DNA from: a virus
Taxonomy: Duplodnaviria; Caudoviricetes
Direction: 5' to 3' (one strand)
Length of the DNA stretch: 60,167 bases
IMG/VR virus record: IMGVR_UViG_3300017783_000017
Span: 1-60,167 of that record
Shown: positions 13,134 to 36,600 of the stretch, piece by piece
How the letters are laid out: every line of letters begins with the position of its first letter
Numbering within the stretch: position 1 is the stretch's first letter
Position numbers and translations under genes: made by a program
Notes under the pieces: model-generated
What the model was told of the DNA's origin: nothing
Seen by the model: the letters and a program-made list of their open reading frames with translations, nothing else
The model's database searches: none

Positions 13134-14309
13134 ATGTCAGAACTACTCGAAAGTCGCTGGCAGGATACAAAGACAGCACTTCTTGAAGGCCTTAAGGGCA
13201 ACAAGAAATCAGTTATGGCTGCAACTTTGGAAAATACGAGAGCGTATTTGTCAGAGTCAGCAACAGCTGGTGCTACATCTGCCGGTAATGTCGCAACTCT
13301 TAATAGAGTTATCCTACCAGTCATCAGACGTGTTATGCCAACAGTGATTGCAAATGAACTTGTTGGGGTACAACCAATGACCGGTCCAGTGGGTCAAATC
13401 CACACACTAAGAGTCCGTTATTCGGACACTTACGCAGGCACAGCAGGCGGTTCAACAACCGCAGGCGAAGAAGCTCTTTCACCATTCAAAATAGCTGAAG
13501 GTTATTCAGGTAATGCAAATGGTAAAGCAGATGCTACAGCAACTAAAGAAGGTACAGCTGGAAATCAACTAAGCATCCAGATCCTCAAGCAAACAGTCGA
13601 AGCTAAGACACGTAAATTGTCAGCTCGCTGGACATTTGAGGCGGCTCAGGACGCTCAGTCACAGCACGGTATTGACGTAGAAGCTGAAATCATGGCAGCA
13701 CTTGCACAAGAAATTACTGCTGAAATCGACCAAGAGGTCCTTTCAAGTCTTAATACTCTTGCAGGTACAGCCGCACTTACATACGATCAGGCCGCTGTAT
13801 CAGGTACAGCAACATTCGTTGGTGACGAACACGCCGCATTGGCAGTTCAAATCAATAGAGTTGCAAACTTGATTGCACAGCGTACACGTAGAGGCGCAGG
13901 TAACTGGGCCGTAGTTAGCCCATTTGCGCTAACGATCCTACAAAGTGCAACAACTTCAGCATTTGCAAGAACTACTGAAGGAACTTTTGAAGCTCCAACT
14001 AACACTAAAATGGTTGGTACTTTGAACAACGCTATGAAGGTATATGTTAACACATATGCAGCCGACAGTGCAAACGTACTTGTTGGTTACAAAGGTTCAA
14101 GCGAATCAGATGCGGCAGCGTTTTATTGCCCATACATTCCGCTAATGAGCTCAGGTGTTGTATTAGATCCATCAACATTCGAACCAACAGTATCATTTAT
14201 GACACGTTATGGTTATGTTGAGCTAAACAATACTGCTTCATCGCTTGGTAACGCCGCTGATTACTTGGCTGCCGTTGCAATTACCAATGGTAATGTATCT
14301 TTTAGCTAA
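13134..14309 (+). CDS. gp23: Major capsid protein (T4 gp23-like)
   Basis: RRVMPTVIANELVGVQPMTGPVG, VEAKTRKLSARWT.E.AQD, AEIDQE, FYCPYIPL, TRYG motifs. Confidence 0.97.
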   Translation: MSELLESRWQDTKTALLEGLKGNKKSVMAATLENTRAYLSESATAGATSAGNVATLNRVILPVIRRVMPTVIANELVGVQPMTGPVGQIHTLRVRYSDTYAGTAGGSTTAGEEALSPFKIAEGYSGNANGKADATATKEGTAGNQLSIQILKQTVEAKTRKLSARWTFEAAQDAQSQHGIDVEAEIMAALAQEITAEIDQEVLSSLNTLAGTAALTYDQAAVSGTATFVGDEHAALAVQINRVANLIAQRTRRGAGNWAVVSPFALTILQSATTSAFARTTEGTFEAPTNTKMVGTLNNAMKVYVNTYAADSANVLVGYKGSSESDAAAFYCPYIPLMSSGVVLDPSTFEPTVSFMTRYGYVELNNTASSLGNAADYLAAVAITNGNVSFS

Positions 14310-14360: not shown

Positions 14361-14373
14361 GACTAAATATTAT

Positions 14374-14419
14374 TACGTTCATCCTACGGGACGGAAGTAG
14401 CATTAGCGAAGGAACGCAC
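14374..14419 (+). ncRNA. Glutamine riboswitch (glnA RNA motif), compact form
   Basis: P1 CGTTC 14376-80/GAACG 14412-16; P2 TCC-TACG-GGA; conserved CGGAAGTA E-loop strand; P3 GC-ATTA-GC; GAAGGAACGC end. Confidence 0.8.
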
Positions 14420-14444
14420 TTTAACTTTAACGAGGAGAAGTGTA

Positions 14445-14543
14445 ATGGACAACTATACGCTTTGGTGCTTTCAACAGCTTATCAAACTGCACCATAAGAA
14501 AAAAGTTGACTTTTTATTGCAAAAAGTGCAAAAAAGTGGTTGA
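14445..14543 (+). CDS. 32-aa basic peptide MDNYTLWCFQQLIKLHHKKKVDFLLQKVQKSG downstream of the riboswitch
   Basis: GAGGAG SD at 14432-14437, ATG at 14445, TGA at 14541-14543. Too short for the ORF track. Confidence 0.55.
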   Translation: MDNYTLWCFQQLIKLHHKKKVDFLLQKVQKSG

Positions 14544-14567
14544 CTTTTATAATATAGATGCTATATT
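14540..14567 (+). promoter_or_regulatory. Sigma70-type (early) promoter
   Basis: TTGACT 14540-45, 16-nt spacer, extended -10 TGc-TATATT 14559-67, and upstream A tracts. Confidence 0.65.
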
Positions 14568-14573
14568 AGTAAC

Positions 14574-14792
14574 ATAAGCAATAAAAGAGTAATTAACTTT
14601 TATTTTTTAGTGCATCGAAGAGGCTCTTACCAGAGGGTTGAAGATGACAGCTTAGGGGTGGTACCCAGGCATGGTTGCAGAAATGCGTTGTGTCACATCG
14701 CTCTACCGAGCGGAAGTTGGTTCCCGGGATTCAGACAGGTATCTGTGTCGAAGGGTTGTAGGTGAAACCGAGTCCTACCTAAAATTGCTTAT
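14574..14792 (+). ncRNA. ~220-nt structured RNA, manA-motif-like
   Basis: Closing helix ATAAGCAAT 14574-82/ATTGCTTAT 14784-92; two TACC-loop hairpins and two GGTA loops; GCA-GAAA-TGC GNRA hairpin; GTAGG/CCTAC. GC-rich with no ORF. The GGTGGT...ATCG..TACC..CGG pattern recalls the manA motif. Confidence 0.7.
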
Positions 14793-14806
14793 TCTTAAAC
14801 AGGCGC

Positions 14807-15070
14807 TTAGGCGTCTGTTTTCTTATTAAAAATTCCAAACTTTTTACATTTAGCAATAAACGTTGTACGTTTGATTCCTAAAGATTTGCTTGCATGTGTT
14901 TGATTGTAGTTGTGTTCAATTAAAGCATCTTTAATTTTATCTATTATAAAATCTTCTGTTTCTTTATCTAAATTTTTTGTAGGTACGTTCTGGTCATCTT
15001 TGATATTATGATGTCGACTCATTTCCTCAAAAGCTTCGAACATTACATCCTGTTCTGACTTTAGCACCAT
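14807..15070 (-). CDS. Stand-alone Fis-family (HTH_8) DNA-binding protein
   Basis: IKDALIEHNYNQTHASKSLGIKRTTFIAKCKKFGI matches the C-terminal HTH of Fis and NtrC/FleQ-type activators. No AAA+ domain. Confidence 0.8.
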   Translation of the reverse strand: MVLKSEQDVMFEAFEEMSRHHNIKDDQNVPTKNLDKETEDFIIDKIKDALIEHNYNQTHASKSLGIKRTTFIAKCKKFGIFNKKTDA

Positions 15071-15093
15071 TTAGATTCCTGACCTTATTAAGA

Positions 15094-15101
15094 TATTTAT
15101 G
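15094..15101 (-). promoter_or_regulatory. Late promoter CATAAATA for the Fis-like gene
   Basis: TATTTATG on the + strand, about 24 nt upstream of the ATG at 15070. Confidence 0.6.
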
Positions 15102-15146
15102 CAGTGTTTGCAAAACAATTACAATGATCGGAAACATATTACATAT

Positions 15147-15164
15147 GTGTTAAAATTTTAACAC
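15147..15164. promoter_or_regulatory. Perfect 18-bp palindrome, candidate CRP/Clr-family or Fis-type operator
   Basis: GTGTTAAAATTTTAACAC = TGTTA-N6-TAACA / TGTT-N8-AACA, 5 nt upstream of the csgF late promoter. Confidence 0.55.
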
Positions 15165-15169
15165 CAAGC

Positions 15170-15196
15170 GATAAATACAAGTGGAGGGCTTCCTTT
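15170..15196 (+). promoter_or_regulatory. Late promoter and leader of the csgF operon (copy 1 of the 19-bp element)
   Basis: GATAAATA followed by CAAGTGGAGGGCTTCCTTT and ATG. 15171-15189 is identical to the reverse complement of 24455-24473. Confidence 0.75.
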
Positions 15197-15685
15197 ATGA
15201 AGATAAGAAATATACATATCATCGGTCTGACTTTAGCACTTACATTTGCTATACCCAATGTTGCCGCAAGTGACTTGACTTGGAGTTTTAAATCTCCAGC
15301 ATTTCATTATGGTAACGGCTACAGTACTCACGTACTAAGTGTAGAACAGCTACAGTTTAACCGCAGAAAAGAAATTGCAGATGCACAGAAAGCAGAAGCG
15401 GCTCGCTTAGAGCGTGAATTAGAAAATACTACACTTAATAAATTTATTAAGAACGTTGAATCAAGAATATATGCACAACTATCAAAACAAATGGTTGATA
15501 GTATGTTTGCTGATTGTGATGCCACAACAGGCACATGCCCAACATCAGGAACAGCAGAAATCGAAGGTTCAACTATATCATGGGTTAAAGATGCTATAAC
15601 TGGAGAAATCACTTTGACTGTTGTTGAAGAAGATGGCTCTACTACTGAAATATCGATACCAGGATCAGGAGAGTTTAATTTTTAG
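15197..15685 (+). CDS. csgF: Curli assembly protein CsgF-like
   Basis: Signal peptide, then SDLTWSFKSPAFHYGNG (cf. CsgF GTMTFQFRNPNFGG). FIKNVESRIYAQLS and a C-terminal G.TTEI.IP. Immediately upstream of csgG. Confidence 0.85.
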   Translation: MKIRNIHIIGLTLALTFAIPNVAASDLTWSFKSPAFHYGNGYSTHVLSVEQLQFNRRKEIADAQKAEAARLERELENTTLNKFIKNVESRIYAQLSKQMVDSMFADCDATTGTCPTSGTAEIEGSTISWVKDAITGEITLTVVEEDGSTTEISIPGSGEFNF

Positions 15686-15686
15686 T

Positions 15687-16490
15687 ATGCTGAAAACTGT
15701 TTGTGCCATTCTTACCCTTGCATTCCTAACAGGCTGTGCAGGCATGCAAAGCATGGAAAAATTAATAGATTCACAGGACAGTCCTGGATTACAGGTGTCA
15801 CCTATTAAAGATAGAATGATGAATGTTCGTCCTATAGATGGACCAAAAATTACAATAGCAGTATACCAATTTGCAGATAAAACAGGACAACGTAAACCTG
15901 CAGATAATATTGCTAATTTAAGTAGCGCAGTAACACAAGGAAGTGAAGTTTGGGTTATTAAAGCTCTACAAGAAGTAGGAAACGGAACGTGGTTTGAAGT
16001 TGTTGAAAGAGTGGGCATGGACCACTTGATTAAAGAACGTCAGTTGATACGTAACACACGTGACGTGTATGAAAAAGATTTACCTAATGGTCCAACGCCA
16101 TTAAAACCTATGTTGTTTGCGGGCTTATTGCTTGAAGGCGGCATTGTAGGATACGACAGCAATGTTGCAGTCGGAGGAATTGGAGCAAGGTATTTAGGAA
16201 TAGGAGCACAAACAGAGTACAGAATAGACACTGTTACTATTGTGATGCGCCTTGTTAGTGTTAGCACCGGTAAGGTGTTGATGAGCATAGCAACCGAAAA
16301 AACGATTGCAAGCTACAGGTCCGGAGCGGACATCTTCAAGTTTTTGGATTTGGGGACTAAATTAGTGGAGTCGGAAGCCGGCTTCAGTGTTAATGAACCA
16401 GTTAATTATGCTGTGAGGGCAGCCATTGAACAAGGCATAATAGAGCTGGTAAACGAAGGAGTTAATAAAGGACTCTGGAAGTTTAAATAA
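15687..16490 (+). CDS. csgG: Curli secretion channel lipoprotein CsgG
   Basis: Probable start is ATG 15687, giving lipobox LTGC. AVYQFADKTGQRKP, SSAVTQG, WF.VVER.G...L.KERQLIR, EGGIVGYDSN, GG.GARYLGIG motifs. Confidence 0.93.
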   Translation: MLKTVCAILTLAFLTGCAGMQSMEKLIDSQDSPGLQVSPIKDRMMNVRPIDGPKITIAVYQFADKTGQRKPADNIANLSSAVTQGSEVWVIKALQEVGNGTWFEVVERVGMDHLIKERQLIRNTRDVYEKDLPNGPTPLKPMLFAGLLLEGGIVGYDSNVAVGGIGARYLGIGAQTEYRIDTVTIVMRLVSVSTGKVLMSIATEKTIASYRSGADIFKFLDLGTKLVESEAGFSVNEPVNYAVRAAIEQGIIELVNEGVNKGLWKFK

Positions 16491-16503
16491 GAGGGTAACT
16501 ATT

Positions 16504-17250
16504 ATGAAAAGTATAAAATTGTACTTAACAGCTATACTCTGGTTTACTGTATCTACTGCTCTGGCAAACGATATTTACATCGAGCAGGTCGGAGACACAT
16601 TAGACTTAGACATAGTACAAGATGGTGCGAATAATGTTATAGGCACAGCAACAACTGCGGCTATTTTAGAGGGCGACGGTATGACGTTCGATATTACACA
16701 GACAGGAAGTGCAAACGTTATTGCGGCAACTATCAAAGGAGTGAACTACGAAGGAACATGGGATTTTACTGGTGATCGTAACACAGTAGACATGTTATGT
16801 TCAAGCGCAAGTTCGGGTAATTGTGATGACGTTACGTTGAATGTCACTGTAGATGGTGATGACAACGAATTCAAGTTTTATGTAGGGCAATCTGCAGATG
16901 CAGAAGATTTACTTGCGGCATTCACTGTTGATGGAGACGGAAACGTTTTTGACGTTGACGTTGACGGAACAGATGCAAACATAACTGTCACTGTAGATAA
17001 CAGTGCATCGTTAGCATCTAACCAAGTCCAATCAGCTACCGATAATAATCTTTCAACAAGTGTTGCTGGAGGAAATATTATTGATTTAGATATAGACGGT
17101 AATGGAGATACAAACGGGCATGAAATTATCTTAGATATTACAGGCGGCGGGTCATCTTACACCATTAACCAAAGTGGCGTTAACGACAACAAAGTTGATG
17201 CAACTTTTTCAGGTGATGGTCAAACTGTCAATATAACGCAGAGTGACTAA
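16504..17250 (+). CDS. Secreted curlin-like beta-solenoid repeat protein
   Basis: Signal peptide ending ALA. Repeats such as IYIEQVGDTLDLDIVQDGANN, ITQTGSAN, V.VDGDDN, INQSGVNDN. Directly after csgG. Confidence 0.7.
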   Translation: MKSIKLYLTAILWFTVSTALANDIYIEQVGDTLDLDIVQDGANNVIGTATTAAILEGDGMTFDITQTGSANVIAATIKGVNYEGTWDFTGDRNTVDMLCSSASSGNCDDVTLNVTVDGDDNEFKFYVGQSADAEDLLAAFTVDGDGNVFDVDVDGTDANITVTVDNSASLASNQVQSATDNNLSTSVAGGNIIDLDIDGNGDTNGHEIILDITGGGSSYTINQSGVNDNKVDATFSGDGQTVNITQSD

Positions 17251-18385
17251 AATGTTAAGATTAATTCTAACATTCGCATTTTTTCTTTCGAGCACCTCAA
17301 CCGTTTATGCTAATTTGTCAGCAGGCAATATTGGCGAAATGAAAGGCTCTGGCGTGCTTGAAAGGCGAAATGATGTAATTACAGGTGGCGCAGGCGTAAG
17401 TGTGCAAAGTATGGACACTGCGGTTACAGCTAACGGTAAAATGAGAATTGATTTTATTGACGAAACACGAGTAGATTTAACAGAACATTCAAGACTTTTG
17501 ATTGACGAGTTTGTCTATGACCCTGCAAACGATATAGGCAAACTTTCAATTAAGGCCTCCTTAGGAGGTGTGAGATATGCTTCAGGCCAAATAGCAAAAA
17601 AATATAGACAAAACGTACAAATTAAAACACCATCTGCTACAATCGGAGTTAGGGGAACCGATTTTATATTAGTAGTAGACGAGGCGGGCGGCACGATGGT
17701 AACACTTTTACCCTCTTGTGATGTAGATGGGTATTGCTACACAGGAGAAATAGAAGTGGAAACCGATGCTGGCTTTGTAATTATGAACCAAGCCTTCCAA
17801 TCCACCATGGTTACACACGGCATGCGTCCCCCGACTCCCCCTTTAATTTTAGATATAGGCGAATCAGAAATCAACCAACTATTAATATTACGTAAGAAAA
17901 AACCTTATGAAGAAGAGGAAGATGAAATACGTAAAAAAACAAAAAAGATGTTTGATTTTCTTGATATAGATTTTTTAGAATTTGACGAACTTAATAATGA
18001 TGCACTAACATCAGATGTGCAAAATATATGGGCTACAGAGTTAGATGATAGCGATTACTATCTATCTGATTTGTTAGTTGATATGTTAGATGTTTTAAAT
18101 TTAGCATTAGCTAACTTATTTAGAGATCAACTTAAACTGGAAAACCAAGAAATATTTAGACAAAAACAAATTACAGGATATGACGAAACAACACGTATAT
18201 TCCTTGATTACGAAGAACCTACATATCATATAAGAAGAAAAGATATTTCGTTAAACAACAATATAGATATAAAATTAAATGATCAATACGGTTATACTCT
18301 AAACATAGAACAGCAAGACGAAGCAGTGTATGAATATCTACTTGGTGTAGGTGCTAATAGTATAGATATAAAGCAGAGACAATAA
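17243..18385 (+). CDS. FecR-domain periplasmic protein
   Basis: Signal peptide. D...T......I.F.D.T.V.L.E.S.L.ID and IKTPSATIGVRGTDF motifs of the FecR domain. Confidence 0.85.
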   Translation: MTKMLRLILTFAFFLSSTSTVYANLSAGNIGEMKGSGVLERRNDVITGGAGVSVQSMDTAVTANGKMRIDFIDETRVDLTEHSRLLIDEFVYDPANDIGKLSIKASLGGVRYASGQIAKKYRQNVQIKTPSATIGVRGTDFILVVDEAGGTMVTLLPSCDVDGYCYTGEIEVETDAGFVIMNQAFQSTMVTHGMRPPTPPLILDIGESEINQLLILRKKKPYEEEEDEIRKKTKKMFDFLDIDFLEFDELNNDALTSDVQNIWATELDDSDYYLSDLLVDMLDVLNLALANLFRDQLKLENQEIFRQKQITGYDETTRIFLDYEEPTYHIRRKDISLNNNIDIKLNDQYGYTLNIEQQDEAVYEYLLGVGANSIDIKQRQ

Positions 18386-19839
18386 TGAAACTAACAGGAA
18401 CACATTTAGGAATCTTAGTTATAGCATTATACTTTGTTTTTCAGGCTTGTCCTGTGCAAGCTAATGATGCCTTTATATATTATAGTAACGGTAGCCCAGG
18501 CACCACCGCTCAATACAATCATTTAAAAAGCGAACTTGAAGATTTAGGATTTACTGTGACAGGAAGTACAAGTGGCACAGTAAGTTCAAGTGCAATATCA
18601 GGCCAAGATTTAGTTATTGATATGGCAGGAACTTCAAACTGTGGTAGTACTTGTAAGACAGCGTATGACAACTATGTAAATGGTGGTGGTAAATTACTCA
18701 TAGTAGGAGTCAACGGTGCAACCAACAGAAATGGCAATATAGAATCACTGATTGAAAATAAAATGGGTGTGGGATCAATGACATGGTATTCCCAAAGTTG
18801 TAGCGGCTGTTTTGCTTCAGTTGCAGTAGGCGATTATGCTTCAAGTACATCAAGTGAAAACACATTGCCAGGACCAGACAAATTGTTTACAGCAAGTGGC
18901 GGTACAGCAATGGCCAAAAACAGCACAGGTAATAATTATATGAGTTGGTATAAATGGGGCTATGGTTCCAATGGTGGTACCGTAATGGTCACTACTGGTT
19001 ATGGACAGTTTTTATCATATAATTCTCTTGTTGATAATCAAAATGCTTTCTTGTTAAGAGCATTGCAAGAAGAAGGATTAGTTGCAACAACAGTGACTTA
19101 CACATCAAGTATAAGCAATGCACAGACCACACAAATAACAACATCAAGAGCAGTAACACATAGTGGTAATGGTATATACATCGAGCAAGTGGGCAATGAC
19201 AACGAGTTAACTATCGACCAAGAAGGCGATAACAATCTTATCGCAGGCACTGGTAGTACAACTACTAATTATGAAAATGCAGAAATTACTGGAAGTAACA
19301 ATGTTACTACGCTAAATCAAAATGGTACTAACAATGTAATGTTGTTTGATATCACAGGCAACTATAACGATACAACTGTTGACCAAGGCGGTACTACAGG
19401 TTCAGACGATAACAGAGCCGAGTTTAACATCAATGGCGGCTTTAATACAACAAGTATTACGCAAAATCATGCCAATGGTATTGGAACTAATGGACACTTT
19501 GTTGCATTAGATCTTGACGGTGACGACAACAATGTTTTGACAAGTCAACTTAATGATGGAGATAAGAAAGCATTTCTAAGTGTACAAGGTGACGACAATG
19601 ATATAGACCTATACCAACAAGGCTCAGGCTCGCACTATGCAGAAATATCTGTAGGCAATGATCAAACAATTGATGTAACACAAGACGGAAGTGGCAATCA
19701 CAATGCCAGTATTTCAATGTCAGGTTATACATCAGGTTTGGATCTTACACAAGATAGTTCAACAGGAAAAACTTATTCTATAATGCAAAATTGCTTAAAC
19801 GCAAATGGTTGTGGCACAACTACTATTACACAAAACTGA
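18385..19839 (+). CDS. Secreted protein with an N-terminal alpha/beta (GATase-like) domain and C-terminal curlin repeats
   Basis: Signal peptide ending VQA. LKSELEDLGFTV...YVNGGGKLLIVG. C-terminal IEQVGNDN, IDQEGDNN, LNQNGTNN, QQGSGSH.A, TQDGSGNH.A repeats. Confidence 0.7.
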   Translation: MKLTGTHLGILVIALYFVFQACPVQANDAFIYYSNGSPGTTAQYNHLKSELEDLGFTVTGSTSGTVSSSAISGQDLVIDMAGTSNCGSTCKTAYDNYVNGGGKLLIVGVNGATNRNGNIESLIENKMGVGSMTWYSQSCSGCFASVAVGDYASSTSSENTLPGPDKLFTASGGTAMAKNSTGNNYMSWYKWGYGSNGGTVMVTTGYGQFLSYNSLVDNQNAFLLRALQEEGLVATTVTYTSSISNAQTTQITTSRAVTHSGNGIYIEQVGNDNELTIDQEGDNNLIAGTGSTTTNYENAEITGSNNVTTLNQNGTNNVMLFDITGNYNDTTVDQGGTTGSDDNRAEFNINGGFNTTSITQNHANGIGTNGHFVALDLDGDDNNVLTSQLNDGDKKAFLSVQGDDNDIDLYQQGSGSHYAEISVGNDQTIDVTQDGSGNHNASISMSGYTSGLDLTQDSSTGKTYSIMQNCLNANGCGTTTITQN

Positions 19840-19857
19840 AAGGGAAGGATTAAAAAA

Positions 19858-20133
19858 ATGGAAATGGGCTTTAACGAGATAGCAAAAACTTGTCTCGATT
19901 TAGAAGGGTATGATAGAAACTTACCTGTTGAAGAAAGATTTGAAGAATTTGATTTTAGAAAGGCCGCAGGGTGTGCATCTAAGGGTAGAGTTGCACTATA
20001 CATAAAAGATAATTATGATACTGCGGCTTTCTTAAAAGCAAATCCTCATTTCAGATATCCAGGCGGATCAAATGGAAACATAGACCCGTGCTGGGGCAAG
20101 AACAAAAGATATCTTGCAAACGGAGGATGTTAA
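19858..20133 (+). CDS. Hypothetical protein (4 Cys)
   Basis: 91-aa ORF with purine-rich SD, in operon orientation. Confidence 0.55.
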   Translation: MEMGFNEIAKTCLDLEGYDRNLPVEERFEEFDFRKAAGCASKGRVALYIKDNYDTAAFLKANPHFRYPGGSNGNIDPCWGKNKRYLANGGC

Positions 20134-20134
20134 A

Positions 20135-20350
20135 ATGAGTAACTTTAATCAAGATCATATGTTTACAAAGCTACAAAAAATGTATTTTTTAGGATGTGGT
20201 ATATTAGTAGCATTATGTATGACTTACATTACATTTTTATATTTTGAGTATAGAGTAGTAAATGCAACATGGGAAACTACATTTGTTTCGCCTGCGGCAT
20301 TTTGGGACGAAGTACCGGACTGGAAATGGGAACCTATATTTAAGGGGTAA
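20135..20350 (+). CDS. Small single-pass membrane protein
   Basis: GGAGG SD before ATG 20135. Hydrophobic segment YFLGCGILVALCMTYITFLYF. Confidence 0.6.
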   Translation: MSNFNQDHMFTKLQKMYFLGCGILVALCMTYITFLYFEYRVVNATWETTFVSPAAFWDEVPDWKWEPIFKG

Positions 20351-20358
20351 ATAAACAC

Positions 20359-20616
20359 ATGTTCGGATGGTTTCAAAAGGAGCACACAGATGCAGAACAA
20401 CAAGAGGATTGGATTCCTAAGCGAGTTGCAGAGCTTAAATCCAGAATCGCCGCTCTTGAAAGCCGCATCGGAAGGCATAAAGAATCCAATCAAAGTACAC
20501 AAGCACACTCCGAGCATGTGGTGGATACGCGAACAGAGAAAACTGAATCAGCCCAAGCCAGCAAAAAAGATCTTGAAATGATGGCTCTAAAAGCCAAACT
20601 TATGGGTAAAAGATAA
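20359..20616 (+). CDS. Small coiled-coil hypothetical protein
   Basis: 85 aa, AAGGGG SD, RVAELKSRIAALESRI heptads. Confidence 0.55.
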   Translation: MFGWFQKEHTDAEQQEDWIPKRVAELKSRIAALESRIGRHKESNQSTQAHSEHVVDTRTEKTESAQASKKDLEMMALKAKLMGKR

Positions 20617-20619
20617 ATA
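20612..20619 (+). promoter_or_regulatory. Late promoter GATAAATA
   Basis: Consensus followed by a ~70-nt leader containing GAGGGC and a CACC-TTTC-GGTG hairpin. Confidence 0.6.
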
Positions 20620-20688
20620 CACTTGTAAGCGAAGCGTGAGGGCGTTTCAGAAAGTCACCTTTCGGTGCATTCACAGAAAGCAATACCC

Positions 20689-21171
20689 ATGATCGATCCC
20701 GTATCGGCTATAGGAATGGCAACAGCCGCATATCGCGGAATTAAGTCAGCAATAGACACTGGGCGAGAACTGCACGACATGGCAGGGACTCTATCTCAGT
20801 GGGCAGGTGCAATGTCTGACTTAGACTTTTCACACAAACAAGCCGAAAATCCACCAATGTTCAAAAAACTGTTTGGCGCAAGCCAAATAGAACAAAATGC
20901 TCTGGAAATTTGGGGGCATAAACAAAAAGCAAAAGAAATGCGCGATGAAATGAAAACACACATAAGTTTTTATTATGGTCCAAGTGCCTGGGATGAAATT
21001 GTACGCATCGAAGGCGAAATGCGCAAGAAACGTGCGGCAGAAGTTTATAAAGCTGAAGAACGTAAACAATTAATCTTAGAATGGGTAGTCGGAATAACTT
21101 TAGCGGTAGTAGGCCTATCTGTATTAGCTTTTGTTTTTTGGTTAATAGGAGTTGGCACAGGAAAATGGTAG
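20689..21171 (+). CDS. Membrane-anchored coiled-coil protein with C-terminal TM
   Basis: Likely start MIDPVSAIGMA at 20689. C-terminal WVVGITLAVVGLSVLAFVFWLI. Confidence 0.65.
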   Translation: MIDPVSAIGMATAAYRGIKSAIDTGRELHDMAGTLSQWAGAMSDLDFSHKQAENPPMFKKLFGASQIEQNALEIWGHKQKAKEMRDEMKTHISFYYGPSAWDEIVRIEGEMRKKRAAEVYKAEERKQLILEWVVGITLAVVGLSVLAFVFWLIGVGTGKW

Positions 21172-21172
21172 T

Positions 21173-21361
21173 ATGTGGATATTAATTTACTTGGCATTAT
21201 CTGCAGGCGGAGCCATGCAAAATTATCATATAGGAACATTTACTACACAAGAAGAATGTGCCGCAGAACTTAGCAAAGCACATGTGTTAGTAAAATCAAA
21301 AGGCCAGTCTATAGATTGCATCGAAATTGTAATTGACGAGACTTACATAAAACTTAACTAA
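21173..21361 (+). CDS. Small exported protein with a Cys pair
   Basis: MWILIYLAL hydrophobic start, F.TQEEC...C pattern. Confidence 0.55.
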   Translation: MWILIYLALSAGGAMQNYHIGTFTTQEECAAELSKAHVLVKSKGQSIDCIEIVIDETYIKLN

Positions 21362-21369
21362 ATAATTGT

Positions 21370-21573
21370 ATGTTATTAGAGTTGGCTATGGCTGGCTTCT
21401 TAACCTGCAACTTATACAAGCAAGAAATTGTAGGTGAAGATAGGCAGTGTTATTATAAATGCACAGACACTTCAAAGGATTACGCATCTACTTTGAAACA
21501 GTACCAATGCCCTAAACGACTACAAGTAGACAGACCTCCTTTAAAATTTAAAGACCGTATCAAAGACAAATAA
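21370..21573 (+). CDS. Small Cys-rich exported protein
   Basis: 67 aa with TC.L...RQCYYKC...QCPK. Confidence 0.55.
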   Translation: MLLELAMAGFLTCNLYKQEIVGEDRQCYYKCTDTSKDYASTLKQYQCPKRLQVDRPPLKFKDRIKDK

Positions 21574-21576
21574 ATA
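21569..21576 (+). promoter_or_regulatory. Late promoter AATAAATA giving a near-leaderless cyclase mRNA
   Basis: Consensus ends 4 nt before ATG 21581, with no SD. Same geometry as 9441. Confidence 0.6.
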
Positions 21577-21580
21577 CAGT

Positions 21581-23632
21581 ATGACCAAGTATATTACACA
21601 TTGGGCTGTGGCCTTAGTTACGGCTTTTATTATGATAGGTTTCCACTACAATGATAGCTCTGTAGTGCAAACGGCTCGGCTGAAGTCATTTGATATACTT
21701 CAACAAACAGATCAGCCAACATTATCCCAAGATATTGCTGTCGTCACTATCGACGAAAGCGCCATTGAAAAGTACGGACAATGGCCTTGGAAGCGTGATG
21801 TTCTTGCAGATATAATCTGGAAGCTTCGTGAAGCAGGTGCTGGCATTATTGTAATGCCTATGTTATTTTCAGAGCCAGATAGACTTGGCGGTGATATAGC
21901 ATTAGCCGAAGCACTTGTAGATAACGGCGTAGTGATTGCTCAAACAGGATCTACACAAGCCAATCGCAACTCGGTCCCGCGAGGAATTGCGAAGATAGGA
22001 GACCCACTGCCATACATGTTTGAATGGCCGGGGATGCTGGGACCTATTCCATTGTTAGGAGAGAATGCAGACGGTGTAGGAGTGTTGAACACTTTCCCAG
22101 AGATCGATGGCGTTGTACGTAGAGTACCTCTTCTTATGCGTATCGGGGATGATACGTATCCTGCTTTAGCAGTGGAAGTAATCAGAGTAGCAACAGGAAA
22201 TCCAAGCTATCAAGTGAAAGCTAATCAAGGTGGGATTGAAAAAGTAAGAGTTCCGGGGTTTCCAATAATAACCACAGATCCAAATGGACAAATTTGGTTA
22301 CGTTGGAATAAAGATTTTGAAACTATAAGTGTTGCTGACAATGATTTAAGTACAGTAGCAGGTAAAACTGTTATTGTAGGAGTAACTGCTGAAGGAATTG
22401 GCGGAATGATAGCATCACCAACTGGTCCAAAATATAATTACATTCCTTCAGCAGTTATGCTCCAGACTGTAATAGATGGAGATCAGATACAACGTCCATA
22501 CTGGGCGTTTTTGGCTGAACTACTTACTACAGCTATTTTAGGCCTTTTATTAGTATTATTAGCTCGTTTTACACCATATTACATAGTTGGTGGGTCTATA
22601 CTACTCTTTAGCGGAAGTCTTGCTTACGGAGCGTTATACGCTTGGCAAGAGTACCTTTATTTGCTTGATGTTACTATGCCGGTGATTACAGTTCTAATCG
22701 TCGGATTACATGCAGTGTTTAATAGATTTGTAAGTGAATACACACAGAAACAAGCAATTAAGAAACAGTTTGCAGGATATGCAAGTCCAACAGTAGTACG
22801 TTTACTACAAGAAAATCCTTCATTAATTAAAGAAGGAATGAAAAAAGAAGTTAGTATACTGTTTAGTGATTTGCGTGGCTTTACACCATTAGGCGAATCG
22901 TTCGGTGATGATGTTAAAGGCTTAACTAAAATTATGAATGGCTATATGGATGCTATTACGCAACCTATATTAGATTCAGACGGTATGGTTATTAAGTATA
23001 TCGGCGATGCAAGTATGCACATACACAATGCGCCAATAGACGATCCAGAACATCCTAAAACAGCAATACAATGTGGATTGAATATGTTAAGTGCAGTGGA
23101 GAAATTTAATGATAAAATTACAGCAGAAGGAAGGCCGCCCGTTGGAATGGGTGCCGGCATCAATACCGGCCTTGGCTATCTTGGAGAAATGGGTAGCACA
23201 GCAAGACATTCGTACGATGTGTTGGGAGACGCAGTATCAACAGCCGCAAGAATTGAAAGCAAGTGTAAAGAATACGGATGTCTCCTCTTAGTAGGCGAAA
23301 GCACATACAAAGAAACTAAAGATGATTTCTTTTATCTAAAAGTAGATGACTTACAAGTAAAAGGTAAAAGTGTAGGATTAAGCATTTATACTGTGTTAGA
23401 TTTAGAAGGAACACACGCTCAAAAGAAAAGTCAAGAAATGCACGAGCGTATGCACGATGCATACAAAGAACAAAAGTTTGATGAAGCTATTTACATATGC
23501 GAAAGACTAAAAAGGCACTTTAATGCAAAAATGCAAGGCTATTATGATATGTGGATTGAACGCTGTGAATACATGAAAACACAAGACCTACCAAAAGATT
23601 GGAATGGTGTGTTTATAGCAACTTCTAAATAA
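21581..23632 (+). CDS. CHASE2-domain class III adenylate/guanylate cyclase
   Basis: N-terminal TM; CHASE2 (IDE.AI..YGQWPW.R, DGVVRRVPL); three TMs; cyclase motifs FSDLRGFT, KYIGDA, GINTG, YDVLGDAVSTAARIE, VKGK; C-terminal W.GV. Confidence 0.92.
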   Translation: MTKYITHWAVALVTAFIMIGFHYNDSSVVQTARLKSFDILQQTDQPTLSQDIAVVTIDESAIEKYGQWPWKRDVLADIIWKLREAGAGIIVMPMLFSEPDRLGGDIALAEALVDNGVVIAQTGSTQANRNSVPRGIAKIGDPLPYMFEWPGMLGPIPLLGENADGVGVLNTFPEIDGVVRRVPLLMRIGDDTYPALAVEVIRVATGNPSYQVKANQGGIEKVRVPGFPIITTDPNGQIWLRWNKDFETISVADNDLSTVAGKTVIVGVTAEGIGGMIASPTGPKYNYIPSAVMLQTVIDGDQIQRPYWAFLAELLTTAILGLLLVLLARFTPYYIVGGSILLFSGSLAYGALYAWQEYLYLLDVTMPVITVLIVGLHAVFNRFVSEYTQKQAIKKQFAGYASPTVVRLLQENPSLIKEGMKKEVSILFSDLRGFTPLGESFGDDVKGLTKIMNGYMDAITQPILDSDGMVIKYIGDASMHIHNAPIDDPEHPKTAIQCGLNMLSAVEKFNDKITAEGRPPVGMGAGINTGLGYLGEMGSTARHSYDVLGDAVSTAARIESKCKEYGCLLLVGESTYKETKDDFFYLKVDDLQVKGKSVGLSIYTVLDLEGTHAQKKSQEMHERMHDAYKEQKFDEAIYICERLKRHFNAKMQGYYDMWIERCEYMKTQDLPKDWNGVFIATSK

Positions 23633-23953
23633 TTATTTTTTACCAGTGCTGTCAAATTTTTGATTTGTTACATCACTGTATTTGTTGACAATTTCTTCAA
23701 GTTCAGCTCTACGCTCTTTATCAAGTTTTGCTTCGTTTTCTAAAGCCATAGTAAGTTTTGTATTCAAGCGTATCATGTCGTTGTCTAACATGCGAACTCT
23801 GTCAACCAGTTTTATTAGTGTAGCCATAGCATCACCAACGACAGGTTGAATTTCGGTCGTAACCCATTTCCAAATATAATATACAAAGTAACCTAACCCA
23901 GTAGCCGCGACTATTGGAAAACCATAATCACTTACTACTTGACTTAGATCCAT
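23633..23953 (-). CDS. GFPI-motif (YvrJ-like) single-TM coiled-coil protein
   Basis: YGFPIVAATGLGYFVYYIW, then RVRMLDNDMIRL. Paralog of 24168-24446. Confidence 0.7.
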   Translation of the reverse strand: MDLSQVVSDYGFPIVAATGLGYFVYYIWKWVTTEIQPVVGDAMATLIKLVDRVRMLDNDMIRLNTKLTMALENEAKLDKERRAELEEIVNKYSDVTNQKFDSTGKK

Positions 23954-24167
23954 ATTTTTCCTTTTCGTATTTCATTAATAACGTGTTCACCTCGTCTGAC
24001 TTAACAAGCCATCCGTTTTCGTTAACAATAAAGACATCGCCTGGTTTATATAACCAATGAGATTTTGGCGTACCGTCTTTTTGAACACCCATTACTTCTC
24101 CGGGCCAATCACCTTTGACAGTAAAATTATCTCCAGCTTGTTCTACAGTATAGTCTAACCAAATCAC
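23928..24167 (-). CDS. Hypothetical small beta protein
   Basis: 79 aa between the two GFPI genes. LYKPGDVF.V motif. Confidence 0.6.
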   Translation of the reverse strand: MIWLDYTVEQAGDNFTVKGDWPGEVMGVQKDGTPKSHWLYKPGDVFIVNENGWLVKSDEVNTLLMKYEKEKYGSKSSSK

Positions 24168-24446
24168 TTAATCTCTCCTTGCATCTTCTTTGCCTTCATT
24201 TGCCGCAATCCTATCTACATTAGGTTTTACCTTTAGTGCATGGCTCATAAGCGCATCGATCTTCACAAGATCATTATTCATAGTTTGCACACGATTGTCA
24301 AGACCACTTGTAATATTTTTTAATCCCTTGACAGAACCTGTAACACCTGCTAATATAAATTTTAATGTAGTAAAAACAAATAAACCGGCTGCCAATGCTC
24401 CTGCTATCGGAAACCCTAAATCTGCTACTAAACTTAAAAAGTCCAT
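24168..24446 (-). CDS. GFPI-motif (YvrJ-like) single-TM coiled-coil protein
   Basis: LGFPIAGALAAGLFVF, then NRVQTMNNDLVKID. Confidence 0.7.
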   Translation of the reverse strand: MDFLSLVADLGFPIAGALAAGLFVFTTLKFILAGVTGSVKGLKNITSGLDNRVQTMNNDLVKIDALMSHALKVKPNVDRIAANEGKEDARRD

Positions 24447-24474
24447 AATGGATTGCCCTCCACTTGTATTTATA
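24447..24474 (-). promoter_or_regulatory. Late promoter and leader (copy 2 of the 19-bp element)
   Basis: The minus strand reads TATAAATACAAGTGGAGGGCAATCCATT then ATG. Confidence 0.75.
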
Positions 24475-24490
24475 ACAAAATCTTACGTTT

Positions 24491-24592
24491 GATAAATACA
24501 TATGTCAGATAGTGTGCCGCAAGGCGGACTTATGCTGTACCCACAGCGTAGCTCATAGAACGGGCATAGGACTACTATTATAGGAGAAAACA
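24491..24592 (+). promoter_or_regulatory. Late promoter plus multi-hairpin structured 5' leader
   Basis: GATAAATA 24491-98; ATAGT 24509-13/ACTAT 24574-78; GCC-GCAA-GGC; TATGCTGT-ACCC-ACAGCGTA; GCTC/GGGC. Confidence 0.6.
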
Positions 24593-33644: not shown

Positions 33645-36600
33645 ATGGCAGAGTTTAAGTTAGATAGATTAAAATTTAGATGGAGAGGAAACTGGGCTTC
33701 AACTATCAATTACCGTAAAGATGACGTAATAACTTATCAAGGTAAGGCTTACGTTTGTTTACAAGCCCACGTTGCTTCAACAAATTTTTATACAGATAGA
33801 GATCCAGCAACCGGCGAAACAATTGCTGTAAGAGTGGGAGCTGATGCATTAAATAATCAAGCACAAGGACAGTTTACATTTGATAACATAAATGCTCCTG
33901 TGCAAAATCTACTACAAGGTAGAACATATACTTTTGATTGTAGCGACAACACAACAATTAATTTCAATACAGCAGTAAACATTTTAAAGTTTAGTTCAAC
34001 TAAAGACGGTAAATGGAACGGTGGAGACACTTACAACATTGGTGTTAGTTATGAACTTGATAGTTTACCTGTAACTGAAACAGAATATGATGATGGTTAT
34101 TCAACTGCTACTACAAGACACATTATTATCACAGTTAGTGCAGACTCGCCTGAAAGATTATATTACTTTAGTACAACAAACCCAGGCATGGGTAATGAAT
34201 TACAAACAAGATATGGTAGCTATTGGGAACTTATGTCCGATGGACAAGTTTGGAAAGGCGATTGGATTCGCGGCCAATACTATAGCGAAGGAGAAATTGT
34301 AAAGTATCGAGGACGTCAATATAAATGTATTGTTCAACATACATCACAAGTTATATTAGATTTTGAAGACGATATTGCACATTGGGAATTATTTAAGACA
34401 GGCTACGATTGGAACAACACTTGGACAGAAAGCACCGACTATAAAGTTGACGATGTAATACGTTATAATGGTGTAACTTATATTTGTAACACTGCACACA
34501 CATCTAATTCAGTTTTAGCAGGATTAGAATTTGATATTGCAAAATGGACAATTATAAGTGAAACTGAAAATTGGAAAGGTGACTGGACCATCAGCACCAG
34601 ATACATGCTCCATGACGTAGTTAAGTATGGTGGATATGTATATAGATGTATACAATATCATACATCTGCAGACAACGCAAATGTTGACGGATTAGAACTC
34701 GATCAAGCTAAATGGGTAAGCCAAGTTCAAGGTATTGAATACAAAGGTGATTGGTCCGGTGCAACAAGATATAAAATTGGTGACGTAGTAAAAAATGATG
34801 CGTCATTATACAAGTGTAAACTTGGACATACATCAGATGCTACTGCATTACGTAATGACGAATCAGCCGCATGGGATCTATATATTCCTGGATTAGATTT
34901 TGAAGGTCGCTGGAATAGTACAACTGAATATCAAAAAGGTGATATAGTTTTACATGGCGGTTATGTTTATACTGCACTAACTAATAATATTGATTCTGTA
35001 CCAGGCGCTAATGGATTGGCACAAGATACTGGCGATTGGGAAGTTACGCTTACAGGGTATAGAGCTTTAAATGATTATGATGAAACATTACAGTACCGCA
35101 CAGGTGATGTAGTACGTTACAGCGGATATTTGTACCAAGCAAAAGTTGACACACTTGCTGAAAGCCCAACACAACAACCATTAAGTTGGCAAATATTAGT
35201 ACCAGGACGTCAATTTAGAAACGCATGGGAAGACGATGTAACTTATTACGTAGGTGATATTGTAACGTGGGCTGGAACAACATACGAATGTATCTTAGAG
35301 CATACTTCTACAAATAGTGATAGTAGACCTGATTTAGATATTATACAACCAGATCAAAACTATTGGAAAATAAGCATTAAGGGTGCAGAAGGTAATAAAT
35401 TAACAAACTTCGGCGATATTAAAGTTTATGATACTGAATCTACAAGATTAGCAGTTGGATCATCGGGTAATGTGCTTAAAGTAGGAACTGATTCTATTCC
35501 AAAATGGGAAGCATTTGAAGAAGTTGATAGAGCTTTCTTTGTGTCACCTGAAGGTACAGATTCAGCTGTAAATGGTAAAACGGCGGCAGAACCTTTTAGA
35601 ACTGTAAAATTTGCTTGTGATTATGCAAGAACTAATCCAGCATTTCTTTATGAACCAAACCTAACTACATCTGATTACCAAGATAATTTAACAGGTATTG
35701 GGTTAGCCATACTACAAATACAAGCTGGCGCAGATATACCAGATGCACCAAACTTCAAAGCGTTTTTACAAACACAAACAGATGACGGTTATACGTATGC
35801 TGATATAGTTCGTGATAGCACAGATTCGACAGACGATGCTAACTTTTTTGAATTGTATAAATTAGCACCAGAAGATGCACCATCGCAAGACATAACAGAT
35901 TCTATTAACAATATTATTATTGAACTAACAGAAAACACTACTCCTTACATAGGAGAATATGTAGAGTACAACGGTACTAATTATTCTTTAATAAAAAGTA
36001 TTCCTAAAACAACTACAATTAATATTAAGACAGGTGTATATAGAGAACAAATTCCAATACTTGTCCCTGCAAATACTGCTTTGGTAGGCGACGAATTAAG
36101 AAGCACAAGAATTGAACCAGCTCCAGGATTAGAGACTGCAAACATGTTCTACGTAAGAAACGGATCTGGTATACGTAATATGACTCTACAAGGGTTGACA
36201 GGCGAATTAGGTGCACCAAACGCTAATAACACCAGACGTCCGACAGCAGGAGCATATGTTTCACTTGATCCAGGAGACGGTTCAGACGATACTGCGGCAT
36301 GGATTACAACAAAGTCACCGTATGTGCAAAATGTTTCTACATTTGGTACAGGGTGTGTAGGTATGAAAGTAGATGGTGCATTACACGATGGCGGTAATAA
36401 ATCAATTGTTGCTAACGACTTTACACAAGTTTTAAGTGATGGTATTGGTTACTGGGCAAACAAAGATGGCAAGTCAGAACTTGTGTCTGTGTTTACGTAC
36501 TACAATCATATCGGTTACTTGTGTACAGATGGTGGAAAGTTACGTGCAACCAACGGTAACAACTCATATGGAGATTACGGTTCAGTTGCAGAAGGATTTA

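Follow-up and report, generated by a model that had tools for sequence, protein, structure and literature searches.

Curli-type genes in viruses were first reported as a cluster in pelagimyophages, for which a role in 'sibling capture' was proposed (Zaragoza-Solas 2020, PMC7029224). A pore that times lysis was proposed in a later report, which describes csgA/B as lacking (Buchholz 2022, PMC9004378). A third account describes CsgA/B-like fibre genes, FecR, and a cyclase in one conserved region of myo- and podo-pelagiphages (Wittmers 2022, PMC9599517). According to the same account, every one of the 65 GOV2.0 stations has the viral curli region, which was also detected in metatranscriptomes, and FecR and the cyclase are not always present, the cyclase especially being missing in podoviruses (PMC9599517). 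The subject of the present analysis is a block of this kind at positions 14807-24473 of a 60,167-nt stretch of viral DNA (IMG/VR record IMGVR_UViG_3300017783_000017, positions 1 to 60,167), which is referred to here as the window. The block is almost certainly a copy of the published viral curli-FecR-cyclase cassette. The module and its main interpretations have already been published.

The cassette of the window has the same gene order as those of two isolates, HTVC008M (KC465899) and Melnitz (MZ577097). In all three, the order is CsgF-CsgG-curlin-FecR-curlin-CHASE2 cyclase, and in the Melnitz record all these genes are annotated as such. CsgG of the window is 51% identical to that of HTVC008M and 46% identical to that of Melnitz, and the corresponding values for the cyclase are 46% and 67%. 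A pair of small genes termed m92 and m106 is also common to the three. The differences lie in the carrier and in the surroundings. The capsid protein of the window is nearest to those of jumbo myoviruses (65-70%), whereas HTVC008M and Melnitz belong to the Kyanoviridae. In the window, the cassette lies between gp23 and structural genes, whereas in the two isolates it follows gp32. Relative to the isolates, the window has six extra small open reading frames (ORFs), a gene with an HTH_8 domain, and an added N-terminal domain in the second curlin-repeat protein, and m92 and its companions lie downstream on the opposite strand, unlike in HTVC008M and Melnitz. The first-pass annotation, made from the sequence of the window, had described csgGF pairs in such phages 'without curlin substrates'. 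This description agrees with the Melnitz paper (PMC9004378) but not with the deposited annotations or with what PMC9599517 describes. Its further suggestion that pore, substrates, transducer, and cyclase come together in this phage holds for the presence of the genes; the combination itself, as far as these sources go, was already in print and is not new with this window.

Every gene that had been named in the block proved to be an intact ORF. Profile searches with hidden Markov models (HMMs) matched the Pfam families HTH_8, CsgF, CsgG, FecR, Curlin_rpt, and CHASE2 with Guanylate_cyc at the places where the first-pass annotation had put them, except that the first curlin-repeat protein was below threshold on its own and was supported through its orthologues. 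The block also lies, as had been said, between capsid and tail genes. Genes for portal, prohead protease, a scaffold-like protein, and the major capsid protein gp23 (13134-14309; Pfam Gp23, 1.8e-99) are located upstream of it, and baseplate-wedge homologues are located downstream, from 26971 on.

How tightly are the genes of the cassette linked to one another? The best 80 of 581 CsgG-bearing viral contigs, chosen by CsgG likeness, were compared together with the two isolates, giving 82 loci. Curlin-1, fecR, and the cyclase gene were all present in each of the 41 loci that extend at least 8 kb downstream of csgG, which bears out the co-occurrence that had been claimed. Likewise, m92 and m106 were present in each of the 37 loci with enough flank on both sides. 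The reverse comparison gave the same picture because 47 of the 48 loci that were found with the m92/m106 profile and had at least 3 kb downstream carried a cassette gene. The order of genes was fixed in all 41 informative loci, and the capsid proteins of the carriers were only 37% identical. The copy in the window shows that the whole block, including the trio formed by m92, m79, and m106, moves as a unit into unrelated phage lineages, which argues that it is a self-contained device.

In the window, the cassette is an insertion of ~10 kb between gp23 and the next structural gene (14439..24490, no strand; limits approximate, placed from contig joints and from relatives that lack the block). The evidence for this comes from related viral contigs, in which gp23 was found directly upstream of the homologue of p149, the 149-aa product of that next gene. 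The two genes were separated by a gap of 181-1702 nt with no cassette gene in 74 of the 74 loci where gp23 was found upstream of p149; the other six loci had less than 2 kb of upstream flank. These relatives are close, with 82-94% identity in p149 and 80-89% identity in gp23. Supporting evidence comes from contigs of RNA libraries whose joints skip the block, one joining 14438 to 24490 (X15, side 43) and another joining 14364 to 24491 (X16, side 30). Such joints are supporting evidence only, as they are single contigs with sides of 21-43 letters at 90% likeness. The RNA-library contigs indicate presence only; transcription, strand, and starts are not inferable from them, and uncovered bins carry no meaning. 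Near-identical DNA of the block was found in 14 marine DNA runs (shares 0.88-0.96; 10 study codes, P1-P10), and near-identical contigs were found in the RNA libraries of three studies.

The gp23 of the window is nearest to those of Sinorhizobium phage Phosso (70%), Vibrio phage 2.275.O (68%), and the PA5oct group (67%), which are jumbo myoviruses of 469 kb, 349 kb, and 287 kb (PA5oct), respectively. CheckV assigns the 60-kb record a completeness of 22%, from which a genome of ~270 kb follows. Judged by its capsid, the carrier appears to be a marine jumbo-type myovirus and not a myo- or podovirus of the SAR11/OM43 type. A megablast search of the block against isolate phages gave no match.

The export part of the cassette begins with a CsgF homologue of 162 aa (15197..15685, + strand; Pfam CsgF, 2.2e-10), which has a signal-peptide-like N-terminus with a hydrophobic segment at residues 6-24. 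Its N-terminal mature motif, F-K-S/N-P-A-F..G-N-G-Y-S-x-H-x-L-S-x-E-Q-L, has a core that is invariant among 63 orthologues. This motif presumably resembles that of E. coli CsgF. A sequence search found no match to a CsgF in the Protein Data Bank (PDB). The next gene encodes a CsgG homologue (15687..16490, + strand; Pfam CsgG, 7e-49), a predicted outer-membrane lipoprotein pore subunit. Its start was taken as the ATG at 15687, the longest ORF beginning with a TTG at 15621, and its translation reads an L-T-G-C lipobox. It matches the solved E. coli CsgG structures in the PDB at 2e-51. At the constriction, the position of Y51 is occupied by A, S, or G, that of N55 by N in 36 of 53 sequences and otherwise by S, and that of F56 by L in 53/53. 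A distant CsgG (~30% identity over 69% of the query, E 1e-8) was also seen in five Brevundimonas jumbo phages of 348-357 kb (among ON529851-ON529860), in which it is mostly annotated as hypothetical.

Two curlin-repeat proteins, each with a signal peptide, follow csgG. The first (248 aa; 16504..17250, + strand) has three QxGxx[N/D] motifs, and its repeats are visible in the alignment. This copy matched Curlin_rpt at E 0.03 only, which is under the Pfam cut-off, but 17 of 23 orthologues matched the family, the best at 4.4e-7; a profile search of solved structures found no match for it. The second (484 aa; 18385..19839, + strand; Pfam Curlin_rpt, 6e-8) carries C-terminal curlin repeats from about residue 264, with four QxGxx[N/D] motifs and 11 hxhxQ strands in residues 264-479. 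Its N-terminal domain of ~235 aa matched no known family and gave only viral curlin-repeat clusters in an Atlas search, and its orthologues range in length from 222 to 441 aa. Both proteins are strongly acidic (net charge -36 for the first and -31 for the second). The QxGxx[N/D] core motif is confined to these two among the 22 window proteins tabulated. Amyloid formation by them is a predicted property.

Compared with the curli system of E. coli, the window has in common the CsgG lipoprotein pore, the conserved N-terminal segment of CsgF, which in the curli system is the part bound to the CsgG barrel, and secreted proteins with curlin repeats. Signal-peptide-like N-termini are found on the proteins of the export set, with the lipobox on CsgG. 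However, CsgG of the window has small residues and Leu where E. coli CsgG has Tyr51 and Phe56, and its curlin-repeat proteins are longer and far more acidic than the E. coli substrates. Furthermore, the operon of the window embeds a FecR protein and a cyclase, unlike the curli operon of E. coli.

The gene for the FecR protein (17243..18385, + strand; Pfam FecR, 8.8e-10) is nested between the two curlin genes. Its start overlaps or abuts the stop of curlin-1, and its stop overlaps the ATG of curlin-2. Because of this nesting, the pairing of FecR with CHASE2 ties the cyclase to the export genes. The predicted product is an exported FecR-fold protein of 380 aa with a signal peptide. An AlphaFold2 model (predicted local distance difference test, pLDDT, 76) has a signal helix, a beta domain at residues 29-190, two helices, an acidic disordered linker at residues 241-269, and a 7-strand beta domain at residues 312-378. 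In Foldseek searches, the beta domain matched the C-terminal cell-surface signalling domain of PupR (6ovk_R, 2e-5) and 4m0n (1e-5). The C-terminal beta domain of 67 aa (pLDDT 84) found no Foldseek match, the best E being 0.56. A curlin-like nature of this C-terminus was considered and is unsupported. A full-profile hhalign comparison with curlin-1 gave a sole match of C-terminus to C-terminus (E 0.0012, probability 19%), which shrank to 11 columns at E 0.018 when the domain was compared alone. A match of the full FecR model to the 'cell surface anchoring domain' 5ix9 (rank 18, E 0.12) was absent for the C-terminal domain alone and was dropped. A complex prediction for CHASE2 residues 23-305 with FecR residues 25-205 scored 0.10 against a mark of 0.32, a result that weighs neither way on binding.

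The last gene of the forward set encodes a CHASE2 class III adenylate cyclase of 683 aa (21581..23632, + strand; Pfam CHASE2, 1.5e-41; Guanylate_cyc, 1.1e-16). Hydropathy gives it a first transmembrane segment, a periplasmic CHASE2 domain (~23-305), three further transmembrane segments, and a cytoplasmic cyclase domain. An alignment to solved cyclases indicates that five of the six canonical residues are kept (D430, D476, K472, D546, and R557), and each of them is shared by at least 44 of 45 viral orthologues. We take D430 and D476 to bind metal, K472 and D546 to contact adenine as the Lys/Asp pair that specifies ATP, and R557 to be the transition-state Arg. The position of the transition-state Asn is occupied by Ser553, and Ser stands there in 44 of the 45 viral orthologues. 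The set of residues is consistent with competence as an adenylate cyclase.

A pairing of FecR with CHASE2 is not peculiar to phages. Prokaryote genomes that were scanned with the cyclase profile returned phage-type cassettes in metagenome-assembled genomes (MAGs) as well as true cellular homologues. The closest cellular cyclases belong to SAR116 (Puniceispirillales) and are 31-34% identical over their full length, 34% being the cellular maximum. In four of four SAR116 loci, a FecR ORF of ~235 aa directly follows the CHASE2 cyclase. In one of them (L095, 2915-12685), a cNMP_binding-Peptidase_C39-ABC protein is encoded upstream of cyclase and FecR, and in another (L093, 1388-8980), a cNMP_binding-HlyD fusion takes that place. 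The SAR116 cluster resembles a peptide exporter that is gated by cyclic nucleotides and equipped with an envelope sensor of its own. The cyclase-FecR pair is coupled to protein export in both SAR116 and the phage, but the SAR116 exporter is of type I (C39-ABC, HlyD, TolC-like). The cNMP-binding domains of the SAR116 exporters also provide an obvious target for cyclic AMP (cAMP), whereas the phage cassette has no such domain. In Verrucomicrobiota, proteins of ~1200 aa that combine FecR, TPR, and a TonB-type barrel precede the cyclase (e.g. L110). Of 62 non-phage bacterial loci overall, 20 were flanked by an ORF with a FecR domain, as judged by an HMM search. A different output is found in an operon of Burkholderia with a LysM-FecR protein and a CHASE2 kinase (PMC5192318). 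Like the phage, this 'BiofilmReg' arrangement of Burkholderia and P. aeruginosa has an exported FecR-domain protein beside a CHASE2 sensor; however, as described there, its output is a histidine kinase with a response regulator, its FecR protein carries LysM, and it has no secretion pore (PMC5192318). FecR with CHASE2 is, in other words, a recurrent bacterial unit.

A further parallel is found on pSymB of Sinorhizobium meliloti, where a 1197-aa 'FecR domain-containing protein' is encoded directly upstream of the annotated cyaK. This gene is presumably nsrA, which we take to be the gene immediately upstream of cyaK; Garnerone reportedly placed it there in 2018. We infer the FecR domain of NsrA from this pSymB annotation. 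In genetic studies, NsrA is required for signal-dependent synthesis of cAMP by CyaK (PMC7529298; PMC13001267). The two systems are alike in that a FecR-domain envelope protein is encoded beside a CHASE2 class III adenylate cyclase. They differ in that NsrA, of ~1200 aa, is described with an outer-membrane barrel of its own (PMC7529298), whereas the phage FecR protein has 380 aa and no barrel and is encoded with the CsgG/CsgF pore and the curlins in place of the barrel. S. meliloti moreover has CyaD1, CyaD2, and the receptor Clr, and no Clr-like receptor was found for the phage in the PF00027 search described below. By analogy with these bacterial pairs, the idea of signalling across the envelope is a reasonable one for the phage cassette.

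The trio that accompanies the cassette consists of m92 (24168..24446, - strand; phrog_18771, 1e-30), m79 (23928..24167, - strand), and m106 (23633..23953, - strand; phrog_18771, 5e-30). The m92 protein, which has a GFPI motif, is the best conserved of the set, with 66-85% identity in most loci, and m106 is its paralogue. Both have one N-terminal membrane helix and a coiled coil. The small soluble protein m79 matched no Pfam or PHROG family and usually lies between the other two; a homologue was found in 43 of the 82 loci and adjoined m92/m106 every time. In 36 loci, the trio lies upstream and shares the strand of the cassette; in 25, it lies downstream on the other strand, as in the window, and in 2, it lies downstream without a change of strand. 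Of the 50,697 records of isolate phages, only the six of Melnitz and HTVC008M contain m92. In a search of 5.8 billion proteins, all 8000 candidates that were scored passed E 1e-3, and none of the 120 matches listed had a name or a Pfam domain. Atlas gave no name for the two proteins either, their clusters being 100% viral and unnamed, with a YvrJ lead at 0.88; Pfam offered a weak likeness to YvrJ/TM140 only (10 and 11 of 31 members, best E 0.0076). The proteins form an unnamed, very abundant family without a Pfam model. The viral region is described as preceded by one or two 'histidine kinase' genes (PMC9599517). The trio, which lies before csgF in 36 loci, may be what this description refers to; its proteins have 92-106 aa and gave no match to HisKA or HATPase_c.

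The first-pass annotation had placed the whole block under phage late promoters. In marine T4-like phages, late promoters follow the consensus NATAAATA. The exact T4 late motif TATAAATA was not enriched in the window (7 found against 7.7 expected) and was set aside in favour of its core, ATAAATA. This core is depleted overall (17 against 27 expected). However, 8 of the 17 copies lie 5-80 nt upstream of a start on the same strand (binomial P 1.9e-8), or 10 of 17 once csgF and m92, which the greedy gene picker had dropped, are counted. Four units are headed by it: the HTH gene (15094-15100, - strand, 23 nt upstream), csgF (15171..15177, + strand, 19 nt before the start), a 168-aa ORF (20613, + strand, 45 nt before it), and the m92 trio (24467-24473, - strand, 20 nt upstream of m92). 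A further copy 4 nt before the cyclase start is ambiguous. Among distinct regions from related loci, ATAAATA occurred within 100 nt upstream of m92 in 33/47 and of csgF in 21/61, but not upstream of m106 (0/50), m79 (0/35), csgG (0/63), or fecR (0/54). This pattern fits operons headed by late promoters. The claim is therefore borne out in part.

What might the cassette do? Late in infection, CsgG, exported through Sec as a lipoprotein, would form an outer-membrane channel with CsgF. The two acidic curlin-repeat proteins would leave through this channel and polymerise on the cell surface. The FecR protein, translationally coupled to both curlins, would link the state of export or of the surface structure, or a bound ligand, to the periplasmic CHASE2 domain, a step that is modelled on NsrA-CyaK of S. 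meliloti. The cyclase would then raise cAMP in the infected cell. A cyclic-nucleotide-binding domain (PF00027, the only one sought) was found in none of six records (the window, two complete isolate genomes, and three large contigs), so the cAMP would act on receptors of the host. The m92 and m106 proteins are probably inner-membrane accessory parts. We lean slightly towards this statement as a whole, that is, a known cassette inserted in a jumbo-type myovirus and working in this manner; the relay mechanism taken by itself is held more tentatively, at somewhat less than an even chance.

Several observations weigh against the relay or the wider statement. The missing phage receptor for cAMP, just described, is one of them. 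The conserved change of Asn to Ser in the cyclase may lower or change its activity. The modelled FecR protein has no outer-membrane barrel, unlike NsrA, and its contact with CHASE2 or CsgG is putative. The CsgG constriction has neither of the aromatic residues of E. coli, Tyr and Phe, so cargo other than curlins may pass through the channel. The E. coli system has CsgE, CsgC, and CsgD, to which no block ORF gave a Pfam match; these three are described as likewise missing from alphaproteobacterial and viral modules (PMC9599517). The linkage was measured in the CsgG loci most like the window (the best 80 of 581), and FecR and the cyclase are reported not to be universal (PMC9599517). Lastly, the RNA-library contigs are no proof of transcription, since carry-over of DNA is possible.

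An unlikely alternative, already in print (PMC7029224; PMC9599517), is that the cassette makes an aggregation fibre. A curli-like amyloid coat would stick the infected cell to its neighbours or to particles ('sibling capture'), and FecR and the cyclase would merely regulate the fibres. The presence of a complete pore with two curlin-repeat proteins and the conserved N-terminal motif of CsgF are what one would expect from such a fibre. However, no clumping of Melnitz is reported in cytograms or transmission electron microscopy under the conditions described by its authors (PMC9004378). The late-promoter-like motifs imply expression near lysis, which leaves little time for a role of the biofilm type, and a fibre does not explain why the CHASE2 sensor and m92/m106 are present in every well-flanked locus.

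Quite improbable, in our view, is the proposal that the cassette sets the time of lysis, which has been made in print for Melnitz (PMC9004378). Here, CsgG/CsgF would be a gated pore, m92 and m106 would resemble holin and antiholin, and FecR-CHASE2-cAMP would set the moment of the breach, comparable to lysis inhibition in T4. The membrane helix and coiled coil of m92/m106 and the late-promoter-like motifs agree with this proposal, as does a weak match of m106 to the holin family phrog_4898 (E 0.002). This match is far under any cut-off, however, and Pfam adds nothing beyond the weak YvrJ/TM140 likeness. A pure pore also leaves the conserved curlin substrates unexplained, and Pfam and PHROG profile scans of the block ORFs found no endolysin or spanin inside the block. 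The remaining reading is that the curli export genes and an enzyme that makes cAMP for host takeover (by metabolic reprogramming or interference with host signalling) are functionally unlinked neighbours. It can draw on the six records without PF00027, on the tendency of unrelated small ORFs to accumulate between curlin-2 and the cyclase, and on the reported absence of the cyclase from some viruses, especially podoviruses (PMC9599517). This reading is very improbable: the fixed order in 41/41 loci across carriers with 37%-identical capsids argues against unrelated cargo, and the FecR-CHASE2 pairing recurs independently in bacteria.

If the relay is taken as the working model, the bacterial parallel suggests what it could sense. 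The signal of NsrA-CyaK is described as free ribosomal protein uL2, present in extracts of any lysed cell (PMC7529298). On a reading that is a long shot, the cassette would be a split phage version of NsrA-CyaK in which the pore and the acidic curlin fibre replace the acidic barrel loops of NsrA as the surface antenna and the FecR-fold protein passes the signal on to the cyclase. The infected cell could then sense debris from the lysis of its neighbours, and with it the local density of ongoing infection, and tune late functions or the timing of lysis via cAMP. What is new with this window is modest. The carrier is jumbo-type and its insertion site is clean, the unnamed proteins m92, m79, and m106 keep strict company with the cassette, the replacement of Asn by Ser in the cyclase is conserved, and the parallels to NsrA-CyaK and SAR116 are made explicit. 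The cassette itself is very common in ocean viruses: csgG and m92 were each found in over 560 viral contigs. NsrA-CyaK and the link to a cNMP-gated exporter in SAR116 provide a testable frame for what CHASE2 domains sense, and the same frame bears on why lytic phages of hosts without curli carry a curli system.

Other genes of the block are facultative companions of the cassette. The gene at its left end (14807..15070, - strand) encodes a Fis-type helix-turn-helix protein of 87 aa (Pfam HTH_8, 2.4e-6, 27.6 bits against a cut-off of 22, residues 46-78). A homologue was found in 12 of the 82 loci, always on the opposite strand; in some it precedes csgF, and in others it lies between csgG and curlin-1. 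Six small ORFs (91, 78, 85, 168, 69, and 67 aa) form variable cargo between curlin-2 and the cyclase (19858..21573, + strand). They were described at first pass as small membrane and Cys proteins; two of them have hydrophobic segments, and two have four Cys each. None matched a Pfam family above its curated cut-off, all matches being weak and sub-threshold, and the 168-aa ORF matched phrog_32327 at 1.2e-13. Homologues were found in 14 of 82 loci for the 168-aa ORF, in 5 for the 91-aa, 4 for the 67-aa, 3 for the 78-aa, and none for the 85-aa and 69-aa ORFs. A joint in RNA-library contigs, from 19824 to 21569 (X16 and X20, side 21), skips all six.

Three structured RNA motifs lie at the edges of the insertion. 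A glutamine riboswitch aptamer (RF01739; 14374-14420, + strand; 49.6 bits against a cut-off of 35) is situated just past the terminator of gp23; after it come a Shine-Dalgarno-like GAGGAG and an ORF of 32 codons (14445-14543), both read by eye. The contig joint from 14438 to 24490 separates the aptamer from this ORF, so that relatives without the block would have the aptamer ahead of the p149 leader. Next comes a manA RNA motif (RF01745; 14580-14788, + strand; 59.8 bits, cut-off 55.2). A sigma-70-like promoter, TTGACT-16-TATATT with TG (14540-14567), lies before this motif, and a terminator-like hairpin (14797-14820) lies after it. No ORF on the same strand follows the motif until csgF at 15197, and read-through would be antisense to the HTH gene. 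A freshwater-2 RNA motif (RF02980; 24513-24595, + strand; 65.8 bits, cut-off 49.9) makes up the 5' leader of the p149 gene (start 24593), with an ATAAATA at 24492 just upstream. The notion that these RNAs travel with the cassette was rejected, because nhmmer searches for the three across the 82 loci found only a glutamine riboswitch in Melnitz, ~4.3 kb upstream of csgF.

The phage-type cassettes that were binned in MAGs (L084-L092 and L094) have cyclases 48-80% identical to that of the window and carry m92/m106 where the contig is long enough, as all of L084-L088 do. Their labels include Pirellulales, Legionellales, Rhodobacteraceae, Chitinophagaceae, Marivivens, Verrucomicrobiaceae, and Algoriphagus. 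They are probably mis-binned viral contigs and are no evidence of host range. Further along the window, the structural region contains three very large ORFs on the + strand, of 1958 aa (33645-39521), 1735 aa (39560-44767), and 1935 aa (54216-60023).

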